This document shows positions 12,181 to 45,876 of a stretch of DNA of 64,000 bases, one piece after another; positions within the stretch are counted from its first letter, which is position 1; the number at the start of each line of letters is the position of its first letter. A program made the translations under genes and the position numbers. Under the pieces are notes generated by a model that worked only from the letters and a program-made list of their open reading frames with translations, ran no database searches and had not been told where the DNA came from. The stretch comes from Lophium mytilinum (taxonomy: Eukaryota): assembly GCA_010093605.1 (NCBI GenBank), contig MU004194.1, positions 1,588,323-1,652,322 on the forward strand, in the 5' to 3' direction.

Positions 12181-12645
12181 GGCTTTGCGCGGACAACCCT
12201 CTCGTGTGAATATGTGAATGTCTGAGTAGAGCTCTACCGGAGGTCAATGCCGCAACCTCGATACACACGGGCCAATACGGGTCACGTGATGATGACCTCC
12301 TCAACACCAGTAATAACATCACCAGTGTGTGATCCGTATTATCATAGTCAGCATCCTTGTGAGAACGACTTTGACCAAGAGAGGGAAGGCTTCTATTATC
12401 ATGGGAAGATGCTAAGGCATTATTTCCATTTTCCATATTGAGCCTAGTGGCTACCTCGCCAACTCAACCTCCAGCCTCGCAGCTTAGGCACTCATCATCT
12501 CCCAGCTTCCTCATCTCGGAACACTTGCCCATCAGGCGTCCCTGCACACGACCATAGAATCTTCTTGAGCTGAACCTTATAGCGTTCTAGGCTTTTCAGC
12601 CCAACAAGTCACCGGTTCGGCCGCATTAGGATGTAAGCAGCTCCA

Positions 12646-14368
12646 ATGTGGCTCATTAATACGACCACTCTTAAGCTAGAGTTTTTCGTCAATCCCGAGA
12701 AAGCGTCTTACGCCATTCTATCACACACTTGGGGAGATGAAGAAGTCATGTTCCACGAATTACAGAGTCCCGACAAGGCAAGCTTCCAGAAGAAGGGGTT
12801 CGACAAAATCGCGCGAACTTGTGAAATAGCCCGTCAGCAAGGCCTCCAATATGCTTGGGTCGACACCTGCAGTATCGACAAGTCTAGCAGTGCCGAGCTT
12901 TCAGAGGCCATCAACTCGATGTTTGCATGGTACAAAAACTCAGCTGTTTGTCTGGCTTATTTGGAGGATCTCCCAGCCAGCGTTGATTTTGAAAATGGGC
13001 TTGCTTCTTGTAGATGGGTTAGCAGAGGCTGGACCCTACAAGAACTGATTGCGCCTCAAGAAGTGGAGTTCTACGACCAAGCCTGGACCAAAAGGACAAC
13101 CAAAAGAGCTTCGGCAGATCTTCTGGCGAAGGCGACTGGGGTTCAAGAAGCAGTGTTAGCAGACAGCGCCTACTTGACCAATCTATCCGTTGCTCAGCGA
13201 ATGTCATGGGTTTCTCGACGTCAGACTACACGAGCCGAGGACATCGCATATTGCATGTTGGGTATATTCGACATTCACATACCCCTCGTATACGGTGAGG
13301 GCGACAAGGCATTCAAGCGGCTGCAAGAGGAGATTGCAAAGCAGGTTCGAATCCCACTGTTGTCAATAACTCTTCTATCGTTTTTTCGTATGTTAATTGC
13401 ATTTACAGACTTGCGATCTGTCACTCTTTGCATGGCTGGCCCCGCTACCTGAGCCTTCCAGCGACCCCCAGAACTTCCGAGGAATATTTGCCAAGTCACC
13501 TGCAGAGTTTAGCGAAGGCTATAGGATAGTGCCTAGGAACACAATTGTCCCCCACAAAGAATTCACCATCACTAATCGAGGATTGCAAATCGAAGCAACA
13601 TTAGTACGCCTGATGTCCAACTACTCGCCTAACGATCTTGTATTCAATCTCGGTGTTTCTTGTTCTGATAGAGATAAAGTGCCCGGTGGCGAAGGCTGGA
13701 TAGGCATATACGTCCGGAAATCGGTCCACGGTTATGTTCGAGTATGGTCGCATAGACTGTGCATGTCCGAACAGCACGATAGATCACGTTGTGCTCGAGC
13801 GATGCTACACATTCGCAAGACAATCGACGAAAACGACATCGAAACGCTCCAAAAGCAATATTTGCGCGCGATACGAATTCAGGCTCTACCGGCTAATATC
13901 AATATAGATCAGATTCAACCTTTCGACTTGTGGGATAATCAGAAATCACTGTTCTTGGATCCTGGATCTGGGCTCAACGCTTACTGTCAGTTCACTGTTT
14001 CGGCTGGGTTGGCTGGGTTGGCTTTCCGAAGCGAGAGATTTGAGACTTTCTCTGCCATACTAGCTTGCTCCACTATGAGCTCCCCCCCAATGATAGAGAT
14101 GTGGAGCCAACAAGAAGAGGGATACAATAGAATATGCTCTTTCTTGAACCGAGCTAAGGAAGTTACAGACTATGTTTGTGTTGACTACCTGTTAAGAGAC
14201 TTTCTTACAATCAAAAGCGGGAACAAGTCAGTTGGGATATGTGACTTCGTGGATATGAAGAACGGCTGTCAAGTCAGACTTCAAGCTACGCTAAGCAACG
14301 TTACTGTAGAGGGTTCAGATGGATTCTTCGTGGAACTCTTCAAAAGCACAGTGATGATTGCAGAATAG
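12646..14368 (+). CDS. Heterokaryon incompatibility (HET) domain protein with unrecognised C-terminal region; intron 13345-13408
   Basis: 'MWLINTTTLKL', 'YAILSHTWGDEEV', 'WVDTCSIDKSSSAELSEAINSMFAWY', 'RGWTLQELIAP', 'AQRMSWVSRRQTTRAEDIAYCMLGIF', 'DLSLFAW', 'GIFAKSPAEF'. Confidence 0.93.
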
Positions 14369-30402: not shown

Positions 30403-33053
30403 TCAGACATTCCCGGGCCCCTTTCCGCTTGCATTTTTCTTCTTGTTTTCCCCCAAGAGGCGACGACGGATTGACAGTCCAGTTTTTGGAAGTCCGCCCT
30501 GCTTCTCATCGTTTCGACTCGTCTGACTACCAACTGTGGCTCCAGTCGCTGCACTCTGATTCGGCCCCATGTTTGCGCCTACTCCTTTCGATTTATCGTC
30601 CTTCTCACCACCCTCACTCGTCAACTTGGTATCAGAGGTCCACTGCCACTTCTTGAGCGCCCACAATAAGAGAACCATTGCGCCCCAGGTGAGTCCGCCA
30701 GTGATGATGATAGTGAGAAACTCAACTCCAACTACGAGAGCATTAACGTGGAGTACTTAGACAGTCAAAGCCCGTATAAAGAAGGTGGAGGACTTGCCAA
30801 AGATTCCAGCCATCTTTCTACCCGAGAAGACATCAGAGCTGCTGTTGCTGGATGAGTTTCCCGTGGATAATTTGCTGCCATTAGGAGTGTACTTTAGACC
30901 GCCGAACGTATCGATGTCTAGCGCAAAAAGACCGACTAAAAAGGACAGCGGAGTGAAAATGAGAGTGATGATGGTGAAGCCGATGACTACCAATGAGAGG
31001 AGTTTGGATTCGCGGGCCTCTTTGATGCTAGCAAGGGCTTGGTCCATACTCGCGGCCGTTCTCTTGAGATTCAATTTGTCTTGAATCACCTGCTGTACTC
31101 GTGCAGCATCCCCGTCGATCTTTTCGGTCCGCTTGCGATATGCAAGTATCATGTCCCTGGCATCGTCGACTTCTCTCCATTCTGGATCGCCGCTACGCCC
31201 TGATCCAAGGCAGCTGTTCATCACATCTTCTTGTTGGTTTAGGACGTCTTGGATCATGACAAGCTCGTCTCGGATGTCGGATATTATATGAATGAATTCA
31301 CCCTCTCTCTGGACGTCGACAACTTCATTGCGCATGTAATCGTCCACGTCAGATAAGACTGACACCACCGCTGTTTCGAAGATGTTCAGGGTGGGAGGAA
31401 ATCTTTCATTGCCGTTTTCGTATTCGGTCCCGAAAGCTTTGATCCGGCTTGCCATGATGAGGCACATTCGTAGGTTGGGACTACTTGTGAACTGACCCGG
31501 TGTATGGAAGGAGTTGCGGAATGACTCCATCACCCGGCCATCCTCATAATCGGTATAATCGTAGAAGGAGTTTTGGAAGTACTCATTCGCTGCGGTTTGC
31601 TCGCCCGACGCAAAAGCAGAAACCACGAAATTTTCCATACTCCAAAGCCATAGTTGCGGGACTAACAGGATGGGTAGGTGCTCGGTGCTTCCCGGCCTAA
31701 CTGATCCGTCGAAGTCTCTCGACACTACTTGGTCCTCGTTTCGCTTTTTCAGGGCATCAGGACCAAGCCCTGGATAGTAGGCTTCGTCAAGCGTTCGCGC
31801 CATGTGTATGATTTTGTCAGCGAATTCATGCTTGAAAAGGTCACTCGCTCCTTTCCTTTTGATTCTCATATTGCCGTGATATTTAGCCGAGCTCAAAACC
31901 AAACATGGAAACTAGCTTGTGTGAGTGTGGTTGATGAGAAGGGAGAGCATGTACATACTACAATGGTCGTGCTTTTCTCTTCCCTATTCCCTACTCCCAC
32001 TTCCAGTGTATACACTGGCTGCCTATACACTGGCTGCCTATACCACAGCAATGGGTCACCAGGAGGGTCTGATGGGTTCAGTGGCACGCGGCAGAAATCA
32101 GCCGGAAAAGGAGTGTACGGTGGTCGCATGGCTTCGATATCCCTTGAGAGTTTCTGGAAGGTATCAGCTTATGATTCCATGGACTGGGTTGTGCATACTG
32201 CAAGAATGACGCCCTAAACCTTGTAAGCAATTGATGGCTTGATGATGATAGATGTATGGAGTCAGACGACATACATTGGTAGATGGAACATGAATCCAAG
32301 TCAGGCTTTCACGATCATCATTATTATTAAGTGTGAGCCAGAACCTTTCGCTTTCCACGGTAGACGATCCCTTTCGCATGGCCGATATAGGCATTGAAAA
32401 TGAATCCCAACATCTGTATCCGTCACCAGGAGCCACAGGAGCCAAAGTAAAGACTGTAATAGACTCATCTGGGAAGTTTTTTATAAGGGTGTCGAACTCC
32501 AGTACTTCGTACATGTGTCGCTCTGGATCATTCCGCTTCGACCTATACCTTTGAAATGCTACTTCGGCGTCTCCAGACAGGGCGTGCGGATTAGCGCCGT
32601 GGACAAGAAGCAGCTCAGCGCAGTCGAATCTCATTGATTGTGCCGCAACGTGCAAGGGGGTCAGCTTTTGTGTACCCTTTTTGTTCACCTCCGACAGCTT
32701 GCCAGTTTTGTCAAGAACGGCCTTGAGTTGATCGTATTGAAGCCTCCTATTGTTCAGTGACTGTTGACGCATCATGAAGTCCGCGATGTCCACTGCAAAT
32801 GGTTGCCCAGCCTCAAGACCGTCCAAAATGACTTGGTTGTGAGCGACTAGTCGCGTGAGTTAGTCCGGACGGAAAGATGGAGACATCAAGTCTCTCCGCA
32901 AGGAGAAAACACACGTGAACCCATTCTATCATCGAGGTTGTTGATCTTATCCTGCGGCAAGTTGGTACCCAGTGATGCTCCTTGAGGCGATGCAGTACTC
33001 CCTCCTACCGCCGTGCTGGGAGGAACGCTGGCAGGAGGCGAGGAAGTGAACAT
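30403..33053 (-). CDS. Ankyrin-repeat protein with a C-terminal CorA-like two-TM domain; about six exons
   Basis: Ank 'TPLHVAAQ..AELLLVHGANP', 'WIHVPSTN', 'ILLVPQLWLW', 'DIRDELVMIQDVLNQQ', 'FTIITLIFTPLSFLVGLFALDI'; splice sites traced by eye. Confidence 0.82.
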
Positions 33054-38326: not shown

Positions 38327-38529
38327 AGCTACAGTGCTTCCCTAGTGCTCCCCAAGATAGACTAGGCTATGCACGTCCCTTATGGTCTTCACTTTGCGCG
38401 GACCCTTCTTTGCTATCACTCCAACCCATCTGCAATTACTCCTAGTCTCATCATCGCAGCACGTTCGATCATAAACCTTCTACAGTTACGCAAGAAAAGC
38501 AGCCAGCGGGCGACGACGAGAAGCGAAAA

Positions 38530-39405
38530 TTAGTCTTCTGGAACGACGCAAAGACACTCCTCTCCCGTGCCCTCATCCATCAGCTCTTCGCCATCTAGCC
38601 CGAATTCACCTCCGGTTGCATCATCTTCCGCAAGCCCTTCAACCTCAAACCCCAGCTCCAATTCTTCCTGAGCCCTCTTCTCATACATCGCCTTGTACCC
38701 ATCCAGATCGTATAGCGCCCCTTTGTTGTACTGCTTATGGCTGACTTCTCCGGTCTTCTTGACTTTGATATGTCTCAACCGAAACGCAAAGACAAAGTCA
38801 TCCGCCCCTTCGAAAGCGACATCAGTCTTCGTCGTCTGATGCCCCTCGAACTTTGGACCTCCCGCGAAAGGAACTCCGCATGGGATCGTCGCGTCAACGC
38901 CTACATGTGCGTAGATGCCATTGTCTCTCATATACGAGTTCAGCCCCGAAGCCCCCGATGCAATCATGACTCCGGTAATCATAAAGAGCCTTTCACGAAA
39001 CTTGTTGTTGATAATGTATTCTCGGACAGAATCCTCCATGACAGTCGCTCTGACATATTCCTGACTCGGCACGAAGTACCGAGTGCACATGTTCTTTGCC
39101 ATCAATAGCTGGCTATCCTCGTTTTTCCAACCCACACTCACATCACCGCCGGCACCCACCACGAATTGTAGAAAGGAGCCCCACACTCCGATTCGCCCGC
39201 TCTTAGTCTTCGCATGACACGACGTCCAGTTTGTCTGATTGTGTGTATGAATAGCAGATGCTTCCAATGGCAGCGGCATGGTGTTTATCGGCTCGTCGGG
39301 CAAGGAGGGCGAGCTAATGATGCTACCGAGTCTGATCGGGCCTTCGGGGGGGCAAGTGCGAGTGGGCGCTAGGAAGTAACATGGTTTCTGCCCTGCCTTC
39401 GACAT
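38530..39405 (-). CDS. Fungal gasdermin-like pore-forming protein (HET-Q1/RCD-1 family), 291 aa
   Basis: 'PPEGPIRLGSIISSP', alternating beta-strand segments 'GAGGDVSVGW', 'TRYFVPSQEYV', 'LFMITGVMIA', 'DFVFAFRLRHI', 'KGALY' then an acidic tail; the motif order matches HET-Q1 as I recall it; adjacent S8 protease. Confidence 0.85.
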   Translation of the reverse strand: MSKAGQKPCYFLAPTRTCPPEGPIRLGSIISSPSLPDEPINTMPLPLEASAIHTHNQTNWTSCHAKTKSGRIGVWGSFLQFVVGAGGDVSVGWKNEDSQLLMAKNMCTRYFVPSQEYVRATVMEDSVREYIINNKFRERLFMITGVMIASGASGLNSYMRDNGIYAHVGVDATIPCGVPFAGGPKFEGHQTTKTDVAFEGADDFVFAFRLRHIKVKKTGEVSHKQYNKGALYDLDGYKAMYEKRAQEELELGFEVEGLAEDDATGGEFGLDGEELMDEGTGEECLCVVPED

Positions 39406-39557
39406 GGCAGATCCTGGAGTCTCGTCTGAGAGTGTGGCCTTTGATTCCGCACTTCTCTCGTCACTGATCAATCAGGTTACCTAGGAGCTTGGTTTCGAGA
39501 AAGTGGTGCTCATTCTTTTTCTTGATGCTACTACGAATGGGTCAGCTCAAACGGGCA

Positions 39558-40178
39558 TCAAGTACGGAAAGAAAGGTGCCAAGCTACCCGCGTAGGAACT
39601 TCGAAAGGTGATCCTCGGCCGGCTGAACCTGCAGCCCTTGGCGGGCTTCCAATCGCTTGATCGGTCCGGTCTGAAAAACTCGAGCCCTCTTGCGAATCCG
39701 TCACGGTCAGACTGACTTCTAGACCACTTTGAGCTCTTTCTTCGGTATCGAGTCGGGCCTCTTCTCCGTTGTATGGCCCCTCTTCAACGATAACAAGTCT
39801 ATCGTTCCTTTCTATTCTATTTCTTTCCAAGCTGAGCAATTCTCTTCGCAGCCCTTGTTTGTTAGTAGGCAAAGATTTTCGTCGCGCAAGCTTGGACTGT
39901 GAACGTCCGCCTTGACAGCAACAGAGACAGCAGACGACAAATATCGCGACTAGCCCAAGAAGAGAACCGATCGCTGCACCGGCAATCACGCCCGGACTTT
40001 GGTCGCTAATCCTTGGTTCGATGTATCCAGTCGAAGCAACCGAGTCAGATTCTTTGGTTCGATAGATGGTGGTTATGTAGGTTGTAGTTGATCTTTCGAT
40101 AGTGAGCACAATCGGAGGTGGTGTGCTAGTTGGTACGGGCGAAATCCATGCCGGTCCTCGTAGTGCTAAGTGGGGCAT
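39558..40178 (-). CDS. Hypothetical single-pass membrane protein with juxtamembrane Cys cluster
   Basis: Thr-rich N-region, TM 'GVIAGAAIGSLLGLVAIFVV', 'CCLCCC', basic stop-transfer; both ends could be changed by splicing. Confidence 0.55.
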   Translation of the reverse strand: MPHLALRGPAWISPVPTSTPPPIVLTIERSTTTYITTIYRTKESDSVASTGYIEPRISDQSPGVIAGAAIGSLLGLVAIFVVCCLCCCQGGRSQSKLARRKSLPTNKQGLRRELLSLERNRIERNDRLVIVEEGPYNGEEARLDTEERAQSGLEVSLTVTDSQEGSSFSDRTDQAIGSPPRAAGSAGRGSPFEVPTRVAWHLSFRT

Positions 40179-40591
40179 CAGTCTCGTGAAGTCATCGCTA
40201 AGTCATTCTGGAAATCAGGATCCAAAGTCGCGAGACGCAAGTTATGGAAAATGAGCTTGAAGCGCCGATACCCTGCTTCTCGATGTATGTGAAGTTATAG
40301 CAAGAATGGGGCTATGGAAATCCTAGAAATTGGAAATCAGGAGCGGGGAAACTTGTATCATCTGACGGCGGCCCAAAGCCAGTGGTACGACCAAATACAT
40401 GATGAAGCCTCATTTGCGCTACCTAGGTACGTGATACCGTACCACGGCTAACTCTTCTTCAAGAGCAGCCAGCTTTTGCTCCTCGACTACCGAACGACTC
40501 TCCAGCTGCTAATGTTTGCCACCAGAGTTTCTGCATCGAATCAACCCGCTCTTTCCGCAACAGCCAGGCCAGATCACCAAAGCCGTCCAAG

Positions 40592-43500
40592 ATGAGTAGA
40601 CGCCGGGCCCGATCTTGTGCTCCCGAAAGGACCGCCATCGTACGACTTGCTGAAGAAGGAGACCAGCATAGAAAAAGTGGAAATCATAGCGAGGCTACTC
40701 AATCGTACCGTCAAGCTGCTCAGCAATTTGAAGATCTCTATGGCGCTGAAGCCCACCGAACCCTGCTATTGAGAGATAAATTAGCTACTAGCCTTCATGA
40801 TGCTGGAGACTTCAAAGGAGCTGCGTCATGCAACGAGGAAACTCTACACAGGCGACAGAAGAGCGCACCCAACGAATCATCCGAGACATACGACAAATGG
40901 CTGAAAGATGTACTGGAAAACCGAAGACGACTGGCAGTAGATTACGTTAAGCTGGAGAGGGTTTCCGACGCCCTAACGCAATACCGAGGAGTCCTGCATG
41001 ATGCAGGTTCGTCGCACTTGTCTCTGGGCCACGATGTCTTTTGTCGGGATCGGAACAATCTTGCACAGGTACTATCAAGAACAGGAGTATCACAAGATGC
41101 GAGGGAAGCAGTAGATCTAAATTTCAATACCCTGAAAACTGCGGAGGCTACACTTGGGAAGAGTCATAGAGAGGTATCGAAATCACGGTACTCACTTGGG
41201 CGGGAGCTCGCGCGACTAGGGAAAATCGACGATGCTACGGAGCATTTTCGAGACAACGTCGTCATCCTGAGTGCGCTTTCTTGGGGAGAGCGGGACAGTA
41301 GAGACCTAGAAGGCGTTTTCCAAGATTCTAAAGTCATGCTTCAGAGGTGCATGCGGAATGGCCAAGAGACTAGAAGACCGAGAGACGAATGCAACGAAGC
41401 CGAGAAACAAGACATGGAACCTCGGACGACGAGCTCAGTAAGACATACAAACATACCCGACGAAAAGCCGCCGAATGCGATATCGCAGACAAAAGAAGTA
41501 AATCAAAAGGGAAAGAACCGGTCTGATCTAGAGCTACTTCAAGACGCTGGTCTCTCCAAAACAGCGGCTGAGAACAACAACGCAGACGGAAAAAGGGAGG
41601 ATCAAACCGTCAGTACGAGTGCTTCGGAAATAAACCCAAACGAGGTATTACCAGCGAGACAGATACAGCCCGTATTAGTCGCAAAAGCCCTCGTCCCATC
41701 AGCACAAACCCAATACCACGAAGCGTCCATCAAGAACATCATTAACAAGCCTCCAAGACTGGAGGGAAAACTTGGACAAAAATCCACGGAGCAGCAAACT
41801 AGTCTGGGTACAGGCCACCTGTTACCAACGGAAGACAGTACTCAAAAGCCGCCACAGTCTCAGGAAGTCATTCGCAAGAAACAGCTTGATGATCCAAACT
41901 CGGCCCTCGAGTCAAACACCGATAAACTTTCCATTGACAAACGAGAGACAATTCCCAGACTAGCATCACCCAAACAGTCACCTCTCCTGGAAATCAAAGC
42001 GGCACCAACTTCCGGAGACCTCCCGCTACTTGATACCCTTCAGGGAGCCAGTGTCGGGCCCCTGACCCATGAACCGGGAGATGAGAAAAAGCCCAGCCGA
42101 TCAGACAGCGTCGTCTCCACACCTGTACCAACCATCGTGGAGCCAATCGAACGTAGCTCAGATCTTGGAAATCTTGTCGACGACTTAACTCCCGCTATTA
42201 GCACCCCATTGCTCCATCTCTCCGTGCCAGATGTTTCTGAACCCAGCAATATACCTGGAGGTTGGAAGGCCGAATATGAGGCCGAAGATGATCCTCCCGG
42301 GATTTTTGAGTCTTTCAAGCCTCTCAGGCAAGCAAGATCCACTGCTAATCTAAGACCTTCCAACCTTCACCTCGATTTCGCAGGCAGACCAAGCCGATCT
42401 TTGTCGGTGTCGAACCTGAGGCCTCGAAACCAATCGCATTCGCGATCTTCCAGCATTTCGCGCTCCTGTGTTGGACATGACAGAGGGTGAGTACTACTGG
42501 AAAGCTTTTCGTACCTGCGGCTAATAAAACTTAGAGCGGACCTTGCGGATAAATGGTTCCAAGACCTAGAAAAAGACACACACCCGATGCTTGAAAAGTA
42601 CAGCAATTTCACACCCGATGCCGATGGTAAGAAAACTTACAAGCATGTCAAAATCGCAATACTAGACTCCGGTGTGGCACGGAAGGCGGACAAAAGAAGT
42701 GGAGAGAACAATATACCGTCCACGATTCAGCTTGCACGACCCCATATCAAAGAAGGAAAAATGAAGGGTGTGTCCGGCACTTTACCCTGGGACGAGGATG
42801 TCATTGGTCATGGCACTCACGGGGTCGGTCTTTTACTGAAAGTTTGCCCCTGGGCCGATATCTATGTGTATCGGGTCATCGAAAGCCAGCTGGGGTCTAT
42901 CCGCCAAGACCTCGTAGCAGCAGCGATAGAGGATGCAGCCGGCAAAGTTGACATCATTTCAATGTCCTTGGGATGGGAGCGAGACGACCCGCAGGTTGGT
43001 GAAGCCCTTGAACGCGCCAAGAAGAAAGGTGTACTGCTCTTCGCGGCTAGTTCCAACGATGGAGTCAATGGTGGCATGTCATTTCCAGCACGAGCGGACG
43101 AGGTTATTGCAATCGACTCAGCCAACTACCACGGCGAACCATCGCCATTCAATACCCCCGAAGATGACCGAAAGCAACGATTCACTGCTCTCGGCGAAGA
43201 CGTTGAATCAGCCTTTCCGCCGGCACTTCAAGGCTTGGATGACGATAGTGATGGTTTTTTGAGGGTTGGTTTCAAACGCAGTACAGGAAGTTCGTGCGCA
43301 ACGCCTATCGCCGCGGCGACTGCGGCGTTGATCCTAGAGTTTGCTAAACAGCCGCCGCTGTGCTACGACCCCCGGGTGCTGAACCATCTAAAGACTCTGA
43401 AAGGGATGCGGTACGTCTTTAATGAGTTGGTTAGTCAAAAGAAGAGCCAGACGTCACGCTTCAATCACCTGAACATTAGAAACCTACTATGCTGTGACGA

Positions 43501-43678
43501 GGGGTATCTTGATGGTGGTGATTGGGCGGACTCTTCTTTTGCCCCTCGATATCGAGCCGCCAGGAAAATTATCGACTGTCTACAACGTTTCCTTGAACCA
43601 GATTTGGGAGCGCCTATGCTTGACGAAATGAGCCGTGCAACTCGCAAGATGTTTGAAAGAAAGTCAACTTGGACCTAG
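40592..43678 (+). CDS. Cytosolic TPR-repeat / subtilisin-like (S8) serine protease, 1012 aa; intron 42487-42534
   Basis: N-terminal KLC-type TPRs ('LYGAEAHRTLLLRDKLA', 'LGKSHREVSKSRYSLG'); long disordered linker; triad 'AILDSG', 'GHGTH', 'TGSSCATP', oxyanion 'AASSNDG'; no signal peptide; the intron joins the two ORFs in frame. Confidence 0.9.
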
Positions 43679-44319
43679 TTCATCACCTTCGTACAGGTCA
43701 ACGTAACGCCACCCTCGCTGTTCTTTTAACTACACTATCCTTCTCTATCTCCACCCGCACATAGCCGATATCAAACACTGAACTCTTTAGTAATGTAGGG
43801 AGGAACTCTAGGGTCTGAACATGGTGGTTATGGCCGCGTTCGATTGCGATACTCAAACCCACGGGCATTCCAAATTTAGATCGCAGATGTCATACTCAGC
43901 CACGGACAGGATCCCAAGGTCTCATTCACCCCGGCAGCTGGGAAACAACCTTCGGGACGTACTTGGTGGCGAAACTACTATTACCAACTCCAGTTCATCT
44001 ATCGATGCAAAATCGACGACTGTGAACGAAACCTCCACGACAACCCGCGGCATTTATAGTTGATTATGCTGCATTGCCAGCAACATTTCTCTAACAACTT
44101 CATCCATCTAGCTCGTAATCGCGACCGAGTGCGGAAAAGCAGGAGAAATCGGTAGTGATTTGATGGTGGACTCAAGAAGAACTTTCAGAGATGTCAAGGA
44201 GGATGTGAATGACTTGGATGAAGCGACAAACATCAAGTTAGGCAAGGATATCTGGTTTAGCTGGTCACGTCACGTCTTATGATCTAACAGATAGGCAATC
44301 TTAAATTCATTCCTCCATT

Positions 44320-45876
44320 TCAGCACTCGTATACTCTATACAAGACTTTCTCAAAAACCAGATCTACCCCAACTTCCGCAAAAATAGCGATGAAATCCTC
44401 CTGTTCTGCCTCTGGGATCGCACAGTACGTCCGCACAACCACGCGACGAAGCCACGGCAGGCAATCTGGAATGTACGGAACCAGTTCGGCAAGCGGCGTG
44501 AATGATATGTCGTTCTCATCATGCCTCATCTCGTCCTCCTCTTCCTCGTCCTCGTCCTCCGCTTCCTCGTCCTCTTGACCCCAAGGGCCATAGGCATCCT
44601 CCTCGTCCTCCAGCTCCTCGTCCGCCTCCACGCCATCCTCATCGACATCGTCTTCCTCGAATTCGTCCTGTTCATCCTCCTCGTCTTGGTAATGCCAAGT
44701 AAGGAAGACAAGTTCTTCGAGCGACTTCGGCAAACTCAACGCAATCTTATTCCCCGCACGCGCCGGGGACATCGTCTCGTTGATGAGGACGCGATCATCC
44801 ACTTCCAGCGTCTGCAATTGCTCGAATGCCACGAACGTCCTGACCGGCGCCCTGATCTCATACGCCGGGAGCATGCGAAAGCCCTGCTGATTCCTCTTCA
44901 CCGCATGCACATCGAGCTTAAGGTGCTCGATCGTGCCAGAATGCGAGAGGAACGAGTCGACTACCTGGTTCCACGTGAACGGAGCGAAGCTCAGGTCCGC
45001 CTCCAACCGCGTCAAGCTTTGGAAAGACTTGAAGAAAGAGCTGAAAAGGGTGGGCCAGAACACCCCGGTTATGCAGACTTCTTTGACTGCAGAAGCGTTT
45101 TCCAGAGCTGCGAAGTGGGGGAGCGATTCCATGTCATCCGTGCTAACGATGACAAGCCGCTTGAGTAATGGGAGACGTAAAAGCGAGTCGTCTAGCCTGT
45201 TTCCGATAGCTCCATGGATCGGCTGATTTTTGTCGAAATGATACGCGCCGAACGAGCGCAAAGATCCAAAGATCGGGGCGGAAGGCTCGTTGGCCAGCTG
45301 TCGCAAGAGGAGCGGGACGCCAGACTCGGTGATCACATAAAACATGCGAAGATTCGGCATTTGCGACAGAACACCAGCCAGGAAGGCGATGTAAGGTGAC
45401 TCTTGGATTGTCTGGAGCCAAGAATTTCTGACATTGTCAGAGAGGCGCATTTCCCGGACTGTTTTATACAGAAGCTTCCAAACATTGCGTGGCACAGCTT
45501 GTTCAGCTTGCAGTCTCCGTTGGCCACTCCAGAACTTGACGCTTAGGTCACGCACTTTGACGCCTAAACCTGGAGTAGTGTTCAGTGTCCGGAAGAGCTG
45601 CCACAGCTTTCGGAAGCTGGTTTCTTCCCCAAAGGCCTCTAGGCTGATATCATGGTATATCGCCTCCTGGGTGCATCGGTGGAACTTGTGGGAAACGAGT
45701 GCCGTCTTACTGGGTTTCCTCAAGGTTTCCGACTTGACCATTGTGAGTATCTCCTCTGGCAAGTCTTTGATGGTAGCTGGTGCCCGTTGGAGCTGGACGT
45801 TCGAGTGATTTTCGAACAGGGTCGCGATCGGGGGAGAAGCATACTTTTTGTTGGATGATTCTGAGGACTGTACCAT
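44320..45876 (-). CDS. F-box-like / leucine-rich hypothetical protein with acidic insert (518 aa)
   Basis: 'IKDLPEEILTMV', 'ALVSHKFH..QEAIYHDI', 'LFRTL..PGLGVKVRDL', LRR-like 'MPNLR', 'LPKSLEEL'. Confidence 0.7.
   Translation of the reverse strand: MVQSSESSNKKYASPPIATLFENHSNVQLQRAPATIKDLPEEILTMVKSETLRKPSKTALVSHKFHRCTQEAIYHDISLEAFGEETSFRKLWQLFRTLNTTPGLGVKVRDLSVKFWSGQRRLQAEQAVPRNVWKLLYKTVREMRLSDNVRNSWLQTIQESPYIAFLAGVLSQMPNLRMFYVITESGVPLLLRQLANEPSAPIFGSLRSFGAYHFDKNQPIHGAIGNRLDDSLLRLPLLKRLVIVSTDDMESLPHFAALENASAVKEVCITGVFWPTLFSSFFKSFQSLTRLEADLSFAPFTWNQVVDSFLSHSGTIEHLKLDVHAVKRNQQGFRMLPAYEIRAPVRTFVAFEQLQTLEVDDRVLINETMSPARAGNKIALSLPKSLEELVFLTWHYQDEEDEQDEFEEDDVDEDGVEADEELEDEEDAYGPWGQEDEEAEDEDEEEEDEMRHDENDISFTPLAELVPYIPDCLPWLRRVVVRTYCAIPEAEQEDFIAIFAEVGVDLVFEKVLYRVYEC

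Follow-up and report, generated by a model that had tools for sequence, protein, structure and literature searches.

A 64,000-nucleotide (nt) stretch of the genome of Lophium mytilinum (GenBank assembly GCA_010093605.1, contig MU004194.1, positions 1,588,323 to 1,652,322 of the forward strand; hereafter the window) carries, between its positions 38,530 and 43,678, a gene for a fungal gasdermin, a gene for a protease that joins TPR repeats to an S8 subtilase domain, and a gene for a small membrane protein that lies between the two (Table 1). A first-pass annotation made from the sequence had described a HET-Q1-like gasdermin of 291 amino acids (aa) standing head-to-head with a TPR-subtilisin about 1.2 kb away, and had proposed that the two form a self-contained, pyroptosis-like immune unit. 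The 291-aa open reading frame (ORF) is present as described, and its family is supported by both sequence and fold. The start codons of the gasdermin and protease genes are separated by 1186 bp, in agreement with the spacing given, and protease and pore-former are indeed found in one genome, since both genes belong to the same haplotype. The two genes lie on opposite strands, but the term head-to-head overlooks the called gene between them. Because that gene occupies the 1.2-kb gap, the protease gene is head-to-head with the gap gene (their starts are 413 nt apart, on opposite strands), and the gasdermin gene follows the gap gene in tandem, its start codon lying 152 nt past the stop codon of the gap gene.

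The TPR and S8 ORFs, which the first-pass annotation had rightly recognised as parts of a TPR-subtilisin, are two exons of one gene. A GTGAGT donor, a CTAAT branch site and a terminal TAG delimit a 48-nt intron whose excision fuses the two ORFs in frame. The resulting junction is identical to that of P0059, the annotated 1063-aa Lophium mytilinum protein BU16DRAFT_594086, to part of which the S8 ORF is 100% identical. In X1, a public sequencing run whose kind is merely guessed as RNA and which we used for what its contig bridges, a contig of 7537 nt spans positions 38430-43800 and beyond and omits exactly the 48-nt intron. The same contig omits a second GT..AG stretch of 99 nt, with the ends GTACGT..CACCAG, upstream of the ATG at 40592. 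The annotated P0059 model removes 37 nt instead (40427-40463), thereby keeping an upstream ATG in frame. With the 99-nt splice, the ATG at 40399 opens just a 33-codon upstream ORF (uORF), the stop codon of which (TAG, 40597-40599) overlaps the main start. In an AlphaFold2 (AF2) model, the first 50 residues of P0059 have a predicted local distance difference test (pLDDT) score below 50, and residues 1-30 and 31-60 have gap fractions of 0.86 and 0.62 among homologues. Because of the 99-nt splice in X1, together with the low pLDDT and the homologue gaps at the start of P0059, the protease coding sequence is most likely formed by the two coding exons of Table 1, which add up to 3039 nt and 1012 aa with no internal stop and equal P0059 minus its first 51 residues. 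These 51 residues are probably wrongly annotated and untranslated. Ribosomes may use the uORF. The corrected gene model, with its start at 40592, leader intron and uORF, matters for anyone cloning the protease.

Table 1. Features of the gasdermin-protease locus (positions in the window).
Feature	Positions	Strand	Remarks
Gasdermin gene (het-Q1 homologue)	38530..39405	-	291 codons and stop, intronless
Predicted pore-forming N-terminal domain, residues 1-232	38710..39405	-	C-terminal boundary placed by the G-A-L-Y motif
Predicted cleavage motif G229-A230-L231-Y232	38710..38721	-	Cut predicted after Y232
Gasdermin C-terminal tail, residues 233-291, predicted inhibitory	38533..38709	-	
Third gene, 206-aa single-pass membrane protein (P0106)	39558..40178	-	Called gene
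uORF in the protease leader	40399..40599	+	33 codons once the leader intron is removed; ends 8 nt inside the main ORF
5' leader intron of the protease gene	40427..40525	+	99 nt, GT..AG; absent from the X1 contig
Protease coding exon 1 (TPR domain and linker)	40592..42486	+	Within the TPR ORF 40592..42490, 632 aa
TPR-type helical repeat domain, residues 1-274 of 1012 aa	40592..41413	+	Pfam and AF2
Protease linker, about 355 residues, predicted disordered	41414..42478	+	AF2 pLDDT and low identity
Intron at the boundary of linker and protease domain	42487..42534	+	48 nt, GTGAGT..CTAAT..TAG
Protease exon 2 (pre-domain helix, S8 subtilase, C-terminal helices)	42535..43678	+	Contains the S8 ORF 42587..43678, 363 aa
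Catalytic Asp codon	42665-42667	+	Checked in the window
Catalytic His codon	42809-42811	+	Checked in the window
Oxyanion Asn codon	43055-43057	+	Checked in the window
Catalytic Ser codon	43292-43294	+	Checked in the window

The gasdermin ORF is confirmed as real and as more than a chance reading frame by its homologues: 57 of 670 candidates match it at E<=0.001 (best 4.9e-115), all unnamed and mostly from Dothideomycetes, lichen-forming fungi and Fusarium. When the single sequence was compared with the Protein Data Bank (PDB) by phmmer, RCD-1-2 of Neurospora was matched at E 1.2e-5. An alignment of the window gasdermin with 36 of the 57 homologues, hand-picked to thin near-duplicates and fragments (A1, 37 rows), gave a profile that matches RCD-1-2 at 2.3e-24, RCD-1-1 at 1e-21 and the HET-Q1 pore chain 9uv9 at 3.3e-14. 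The AF2 model built from A1 (mean pLDDT 79.6) has long paired strands in a pore-like form, with beta-hairpins at residues 52-111 (strands 52-79 and 85-111) and 140-201 (strands 140-172 and 185-201). The best Foldseek match of this model is the RCD-1 pore 8jyz_A (E 4.4e-13, template modelling (TM) score by target 0.66), followed by bacterial gasdermin oligomers and then by the Trichoplax, GSDMD, GSDME, GSDMA3 and GSDMB pores, so that every top match is a gasdermin pore. Alignment to the RCD-1 and HET-Q1 structures stops near residue 220. Since the sequence matches and the fold agree in placing it in the gasdermin family, the 291-aa protein is, by its sequence and its modelled structure, a fungal gasdermin (fGSDM) of the HET-Q1/RCD-1 family. 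The label HET-Q1-like was loose, because the sequence scores nearer RCD-1 than HET-Q1.

Modelled at full length, the gasdermin has extended hairpins resembling the pore state instead of being compact and auto-inhibited, and its tail (residues 233-291) has a pLDDT of 42-70. Because of these extended hairpins and the low tail pLDDT, the model is silent on how the tail inhibits.

Straight after the last gasdermin strand, columns 229-232 of A1 form a conserved motif, with G in 35/37 rows, A in 36/37, one of L, F, M or V at position 231 in 37/37, and at position 232 F in 22 rows, L in 9, Y in 5 and M in 1. The tail that follows in the window protein is 59 aa long, which is also the median tail length in A1, and it is acidic (21 D+E vs 3 K+R). 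In Podospora anserina, HET-Q2 is reported to cut HET-Q1 after F238; the cut depends on both L237 and F238 and releases a fragment of about 5 kDa (Clave 2022, PMC8851545; Su 2026). By analogy, we infer that the conserved G-A-L-[F/Y] motif would be the site at which the window gasdermin is cut, after Y232; position and chemistry are the grounds for this assignment, since residue 220 is where the scored alignment to 9uv9 ends. The 59-aa tail may likewise be inhibitory, by analogy with the ~5-kDa tail of HET-Q1. For the gasdermin paired with the S8 domain (P0059 residues 690-1063), complex predictions scored 0.00 in two runs whose controls did not fold, and are uninformative either way.

On the protease side, the TPR ORF matches Pfam TPR_12 at 7.2e-10, with TPR_10, TPR_2 and TPR_1 under the cut-offs, and the S8 ORF matches Peptidase_S8 at E 5.9e-21. 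An alignment of P0059 with 14 of 46 other S8 homologues (A2) shows that D727, H775, N857 and S936 (P0059 numbering) are invariant in 15/15 sequences; the Asp corresponds to D676 in the 1012-aa protein. The His and Asn of the protease also aligned to subtilisin BPN'. The triad codons and the oxyanion Asn codon are all intact, as the first-pass annotation had claimed for the triad. The best sequence match of the S8 part in the PDB is the Bacillus intracellular serine protease 7y6m (2.1e-14), and in Foldseek this part matches subtilisin BPN' variants with a TM score (target) of about 0.75, which shows a subtilisin fold. In the AF2 model of P0059 made with A2, residues 51-325 form 13 helices (pLDDT ~93), residues 326-680 have no secondary structure (pLDDT 25-38), residues 680-703 form one helix with high pLDDT, and residues 720-1062 take the S8 fold (pLDDT ~88). 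The linker between the repeats and the protease domain is rich in S, P and L, and in blocks of 30 residues it is 0.07-0.15 identical to homologues. No site of the gasdermin type G-[AVST]-[LFMV]-[FYLM], which could serve for self-processing, is present in the linker, the sole match in the protease being inside the S8 core. Starting at 40592, the protease has a charged N-terminus that is not hydrophobic, and by this reading alone it has no signal peptide, as had been noted. In the explanation that we consider best, the 1012-aa protease would be cytosolic and het-Q2-like.

The helix before the S8 core (42535-42640 on the (+) strand, residues ~632-654) begins at the first codons of exon 2, and its residues D637, W639, F640, L643, H648, L651 and Y654 (1012-aa numbering) are kept in 11-13 of the 15 homologues.

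A NOD-like receptor (NLR) with a protease as its effector was also considered and was ruled out, with TPR and S8 as the only Pfam domains in P0059 and no NACHT or NB-ARC among them. Because these domains are absent and the stretch between TPR and S8 is predicted to be disordered, the protease is not an NLR; it may work like a sensor-protease.

We scanned metagenome contigs with A1, which gave 11 loci with a gasdermin homologue (L001 to L011), and sought partners in their fetched flanks by tblastn with P0059. An S8 gene was found near the gasdermin homologue in 8/11 loci, and the linkage of gasdermin and S8 genes is conserved. In L001, L002, L003, L004, L005 and L008 the S8 gene is upstream and divergent; because the gasdermins of L004 and L005 are identical, these are five distinct loci. 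It is downstream and convergent in L011 and, weakly (E 7.8e-4), in L010. The loci without an S8 gene, L006, L007 and L009, have upstream flanks of just 1385, 619 and 865 nt. By Pfam, the partner ORF has TPR and S8 domains in L001, L002 and L005/L004 (three distinct loci), has no N-terminal Pfam domain in L003 and L008, and combines DUF7580 with S8 in L011. The combination of TPR_12 and S8 was also found in 11/47 of the longer S8 homologues, including those of Alternaria, Neofusicoccum and Parastagonospora. Where the divergent S8 neighbour is retained, the gasdermins are 39-53% identical to that of the window. In the window, the protease gene lies within 10 kb of the gasdermin gene, the distance used by Clave et al. 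2022 to define such pairs.

This retention bears on whether the neighbourhood has any meaning at all, since the gasdermin could be activated in another way, by an incompatible allele as in RCD-1 or by another protease, and the TPR-S8 protein could have other substrates. The nearness of the gasdermin to RCD-1, the gene that separates the pair, and the 20% of fungal gasdermins reported without a protease neighbour (PMC8851545) would all fit such an arrangement. It is nevertheless very unlikely, because the divergent S8 gene is kept beside gasdermins that differ as much as those above, and because an acidic tail of ~59 aa comes after the conserved G-A-L-[F/Y] motif, in contrast to RCD-1, in which the aligned region ends near the C-terminus.

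The pair is also not new. The first-pass annotation had regarded the architecture as not characterised, which does not hold, because the same two proteins, KAF2492478.1/KAF2492480.1 of Lophium mytilinum, are listed in row 622 of Dataset S1 of Clave et al. 2022 (PMC8851545), and row 502 of its Dataset S2 describes KAF2492480.1 as having a 717-aa N-terminal part with TPR and Peptidase_S8, the N-terminal sequence being that of P0059. Since it is listed in both datasets, the pair is an ordinary catalogued member, and pair and TPR-S8 architecture together are one more annotated example, with no new principle. The two accessions differ by two because the membrane-protein gene lies between them. According to the same paper, among 1,884 fungal gasdermins 63% cluster with S8 genes, 19% with CHAT genes and 20% have no protease neighbour, the N-terminus exceeds 100 aa in 1,374 of 1,601 het-Q2-like proteins, and the annotated partner architectures with TPR, ANK and WD40 belong to the most abundant; a 2025 review likewise describes fusions of proteases to WD40, TPR and ANK as frequent (PMC12881547). 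The S8 class with N-terminal TPR of Clave 2022 has the same short-tailed gasdermin, an S8 partner at less than 10 kb and a long repeat-bearing N-terminal extension, and the present locus does not differ from it in kind. A literature search found no experiment on a TPR-S8 member, the tested relatives being HET-Q2 and Q2L-6.

Among the better-known systems, HET-Q1/HET-Q2 of Podospora anserina likewise has a short-tailed gasdermin and an S8 subtilisin-like partner; at the cut a Leu comes before an aromatic residue, L237-F238 there against the predicted L231-Y232 here. HET-Q2, however, is a bare S8 domain with its catalytic D35 near the N-terminus, in contrast to D676 here; the HET-Q1 tail is given as about 40 aa (A239-A277) against 59 aa, and the profile score to HET-Q1 is weaker than that to RCD-1. 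The two genes het-Q1 and het-Q2 are described as idiomorphs that meet only in heterokaryons (PMC12881547), whereas here both are in cis. It is from this homology to het-Q1/het-Q2 that an allorecognition role could be drawn, in which gasdermin and protease would be alternative alleles brought together by fusion of strains. Such a role is extremely unlikely, since the two genes lie ~1.2 kb apart in one haplotype; because they are in cis, an idiomorphic het system is excluded for this locus. Gasdermin and protease are also in cis in L001, L002, L003, L005 and L008, and Clave et al. treat cis clusters as the ancestral, non-allorecognition form (PMC8851545; PMC12881547).

The Q1-6/Q2L-6 pair of P. 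anserina is likewise a two-gene cluster in cis, whose protease is presumed to be repressed at full length and processes the gasdermin as an isolated domain (PMC8851545); the protease domain of Q2L-6 is a caspase-like CHAT cysteine protease, whereas here it is an S8 serine protease. RCD-1-1/RCD-1-2 of Neurospora crassa is the closest solved relative by sequence (2.3e-24) and by fold, but RCD-1 death is reported to follow from co-expression of two divergent alleles, not from a neighbouring protease (PMC12881547), and RCD-1 chains are 248-261 aa long and lack the long acidic tail present here. In bacterial gasdermin-protease operons and in GSDMD with caspase-1, the pore-forming N-domain is likewise freed by proteolysis. 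The bacterial proteins have a short inhibitory tail and adjacent multidomain proteases that include subtilases and repeat-bearing forms (PMC8851545). Both systems come from other kingdoms, and in mammals the gasdermin has a large C-terminal domain and its gene does not lie beside that of the protease. In contrast to these mammalian and bacterial systems, no nucleotide-binding oligomerization domain (NOD) module or adaptor was found here by Pfam or AF2.

The locus is therefore best read as a cis cluster of a fungal gasdermin and a het-Q2-like protease that follows the published activation model, to which we give a probability of about 0.8. Within this reading the identity of the parts is close to certain, and the cleavage step and its site are less so. 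In the resting cell, the full-length protease would be inactive toward the gasdermin and held off through its N-terminal part, in which the TPR domain is probably ligand- or partner-binding and probably repressive. On a cue, the S8 domain would cut the gasdermin after Y232 in G-A-L-[F/Y], the 59-aa acidic tail would depart, and the 232-aa N-domain would refold into long beta-hairpins, oligomerise, perforate the membrane and kill the cell. The proposed repression has a precedent in a TPR-CHAT protease, which activated its neighbouring gasdermin only when cut down to the protease domain (PMC8851545). The first-pass annotation had stated that the trigger was not one it could identify as characterised, and activating stimuli are named as a major open question in the 2025 review (PMC12881547). 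Its interpretation of the locus is partly supported and correct in substance but not novel, and the immune role that it proposed is one candidate among others, development included.

Several points weigh against this reading. The gasdermin matches no family in Pfam-A, and its sequence is closer to RCD-1, which kills through two co-expressed alleles and without a neighbouring protease. The gasdermin and protease genes are not immediate neighbours, with the gene at 39558..40178 between them. The proposed cut site was matched to F238 of HET-Q1 by position and not through a scored alignment, as the HMMER alignment to 9uv9 ends at 220. Finally, the orthologous S8 protein of the sister species Mytilinidion resinicola, as published, has an N-terminus of 32 aa: it begins shortly before the His box and contains neither an Asp box nor TPR.

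This Mytilinidion resinicola pair (KAF2815768.1/KAF2815771.1) is found in row 647 of Dataset S1 and row 524 of Dataset S2 of Clave 2022, with two accessions between its members, and its short S8 protein could reflect either a poor or split gene model or decay of the partner. A Glonium pair (OCL10863.1/OCL10865.1, accession gap of 2) was considered as a parallel and was dropped, as its protease is of an unrelated subtilase type with a 63-aa N-terminus.

The same mechanism could also serve development, by killing chosen cells during differentiation, for example in spore release or fruit-body formation. This would fit a preprint on Coccidioides posadasii, in which enteroarthroconidial chains matured poorly once either a het-q1 homologue or the syntenic het-q2-like CHAT gene had been deleted, and it would also fit the presence of both genes in one haplotype and the coverage of the region by a contig of the run guessed as RNA. 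The Coccidioides partner, however, is a CHAT protease and not an S8 protease, and repeats of the TPR type are described as typical of fungal NLR-like sensors (PMC12881547). Lophium also has two further clusters in the datasets of Clave et al. (PMC8851545), a Patatin-S8 and a CVNH>TPR-CHAT cluster, which makes three altogether with different sensor parts; a varied recognition repertoire fits this diversity better than one developmental switch does. We regard a developmental role as unlikely.

The third gene and the corrected 5' end of the protease gene are the sole new points at this locus. In the membrane protein P0106, the N-terminal part is rich in S, T and P, the membrane helix in glycine and the juxtamembrane stretch in Cys, and the tail is charged; the hydrophobic stretch starts at about residue 70 of 206, with CCLCCC after it. 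Its one close homologue is P0107 of Mytilinidion resinicola (42% identity). Similarly built ORFs, placed and oriented alike, were found in L001 (5082-5654), L002 (7187-7714), L005 (9217-9768, equal to L004 3418-3969) and L006 (726-1163). Thus, a membrane-protein gene, weakly conserved in sequence, lies directly upstream of the gasdermin gene, on the same strand, in five distinct loci (the window, L001, L002, L005=L004 and L006), and it is divergent from a TPR-S8 gene in all four distinct loci with enough flank. In L006 no protease ORF is present within the 720-nt upstream flank, so the partner there cannot be judged. The membrane proteins of L001 and L002 are 35% identical over 205 aa (E 4e-25). 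A tblastn search of the gap ORF against the loci gave a best E of 0.10, and the kinship emerged from positional comparison of ORFs and from a profile. When the profile, built from five cluster proteins, was searched over 732 ORFs of at least 80 aa from the window and the 11 loci, it found the cluster ORFs and one extra, the L006 ORF, which is outside the profile (3.2e-12). This profile search found no membrane-protein gene in L003, L008 or L011, the loci whose S8 partners have no Pfam TPR. The gasdermins of the loci that carry the membrane gene are 31-36% identical among loci and 40-53% identical to that of the window. As there are only five distinct loci, all from one seeded search, the conservation of the membrane gene is suggestive and not more.

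Against 1.84 billion representative sequences, a profile search matched 165 proteins at E<=0.001, 18 of them at <=1e-10, mostly of 145-200 aa. Pfam gave nothing significant for the cluster membrane proteins: the window protein does not match Mid2 (PF04478), and one of the five cluster proteins does so at E 0.17, below the gathering score. Among the 27 best relatives found by the profile (a 2398-aa protein, P0123, being excluded), five match Mid2 at E<=0.01 and one exceeds the cut-off (P0127, 27.3 vs 23.2 bits). The Atlas label 'putative Mid2 domain-containing protein' (score 0.91) is a lead only. The main text of Clave 2022 (PMC8851545) does not contain the words 'transmembrane', 'third gene' or 'intervening', and a literature search that combined gasdermin, Mid2 and fungal returned nothing relevant.

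The positional conservation raises the possibility that the TPR-S8/gasdermin clusters of this clade are modules of three components, in which the gap membrane protein would be the trigger-side partner of the TPR domain, as a bait, an anchor or a damage sensor whose perturbation frees the protease. The cytosolic tail of this fast-evolving membrane protein would then hold the protease off or position it at the membrane. TPR domains commonly bind short peptide tails, which favours this idea, as do the conserved position of the membrane gene in five distinct loci, its divergence from TPR-S8 genes in four of them and its absence where the S8 partner has no Pfam TPR. The match in L006 from outside the profile and the identity between the L001 and L002 proteins point the same way, in host loci whose gasdermins have diverged. 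We nevertheless consider it quite improbable, because the five loci came from one search seeded by one gasdermin clade in which the TPR and membrane genes may simply be co-inherited, and because the interaction is a prediction for a protein with no significant Pfam family and a weak Mid2-like lead. If true, it would give the first concrete handle on the trigger of a fungal gasdermin protease, and translation would be braked in addition by the uORF overlapping the protease start. If upheld genome-wide, the membrane-protein gene would be a testable candidate for the missing upstream signal, the major open question named in PMC12881547.

Other genes in the window include an ORF with a HET (heterokaryon incompatibility) domain at 12637-13452 (+) (Pfam 4.2e-13), which is ~25 kb from the gasdermin cluster and is followed by a 323-aa ORF without a Pfam family at 13397-14368 (+) that is probably the rest of the same gene. 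A CorA-like ORF at 30757-31911 (-), with a match of 5.4e-6 that is under the cut-off, adjoins an ankyrin-repeat ORF at 32164-32859 (-) (Ank 1.4e-6), and a single gene may comprise both as exons. The 518-aa ORF that lies just downstream of the protease gene, at 44320-45876 (-), has no Pfam family and is rich in Asp/Glu over a long stretch near its C-terminus; because the X1 contig extends 2313 nt past 43800, it probably reaches into this gene.

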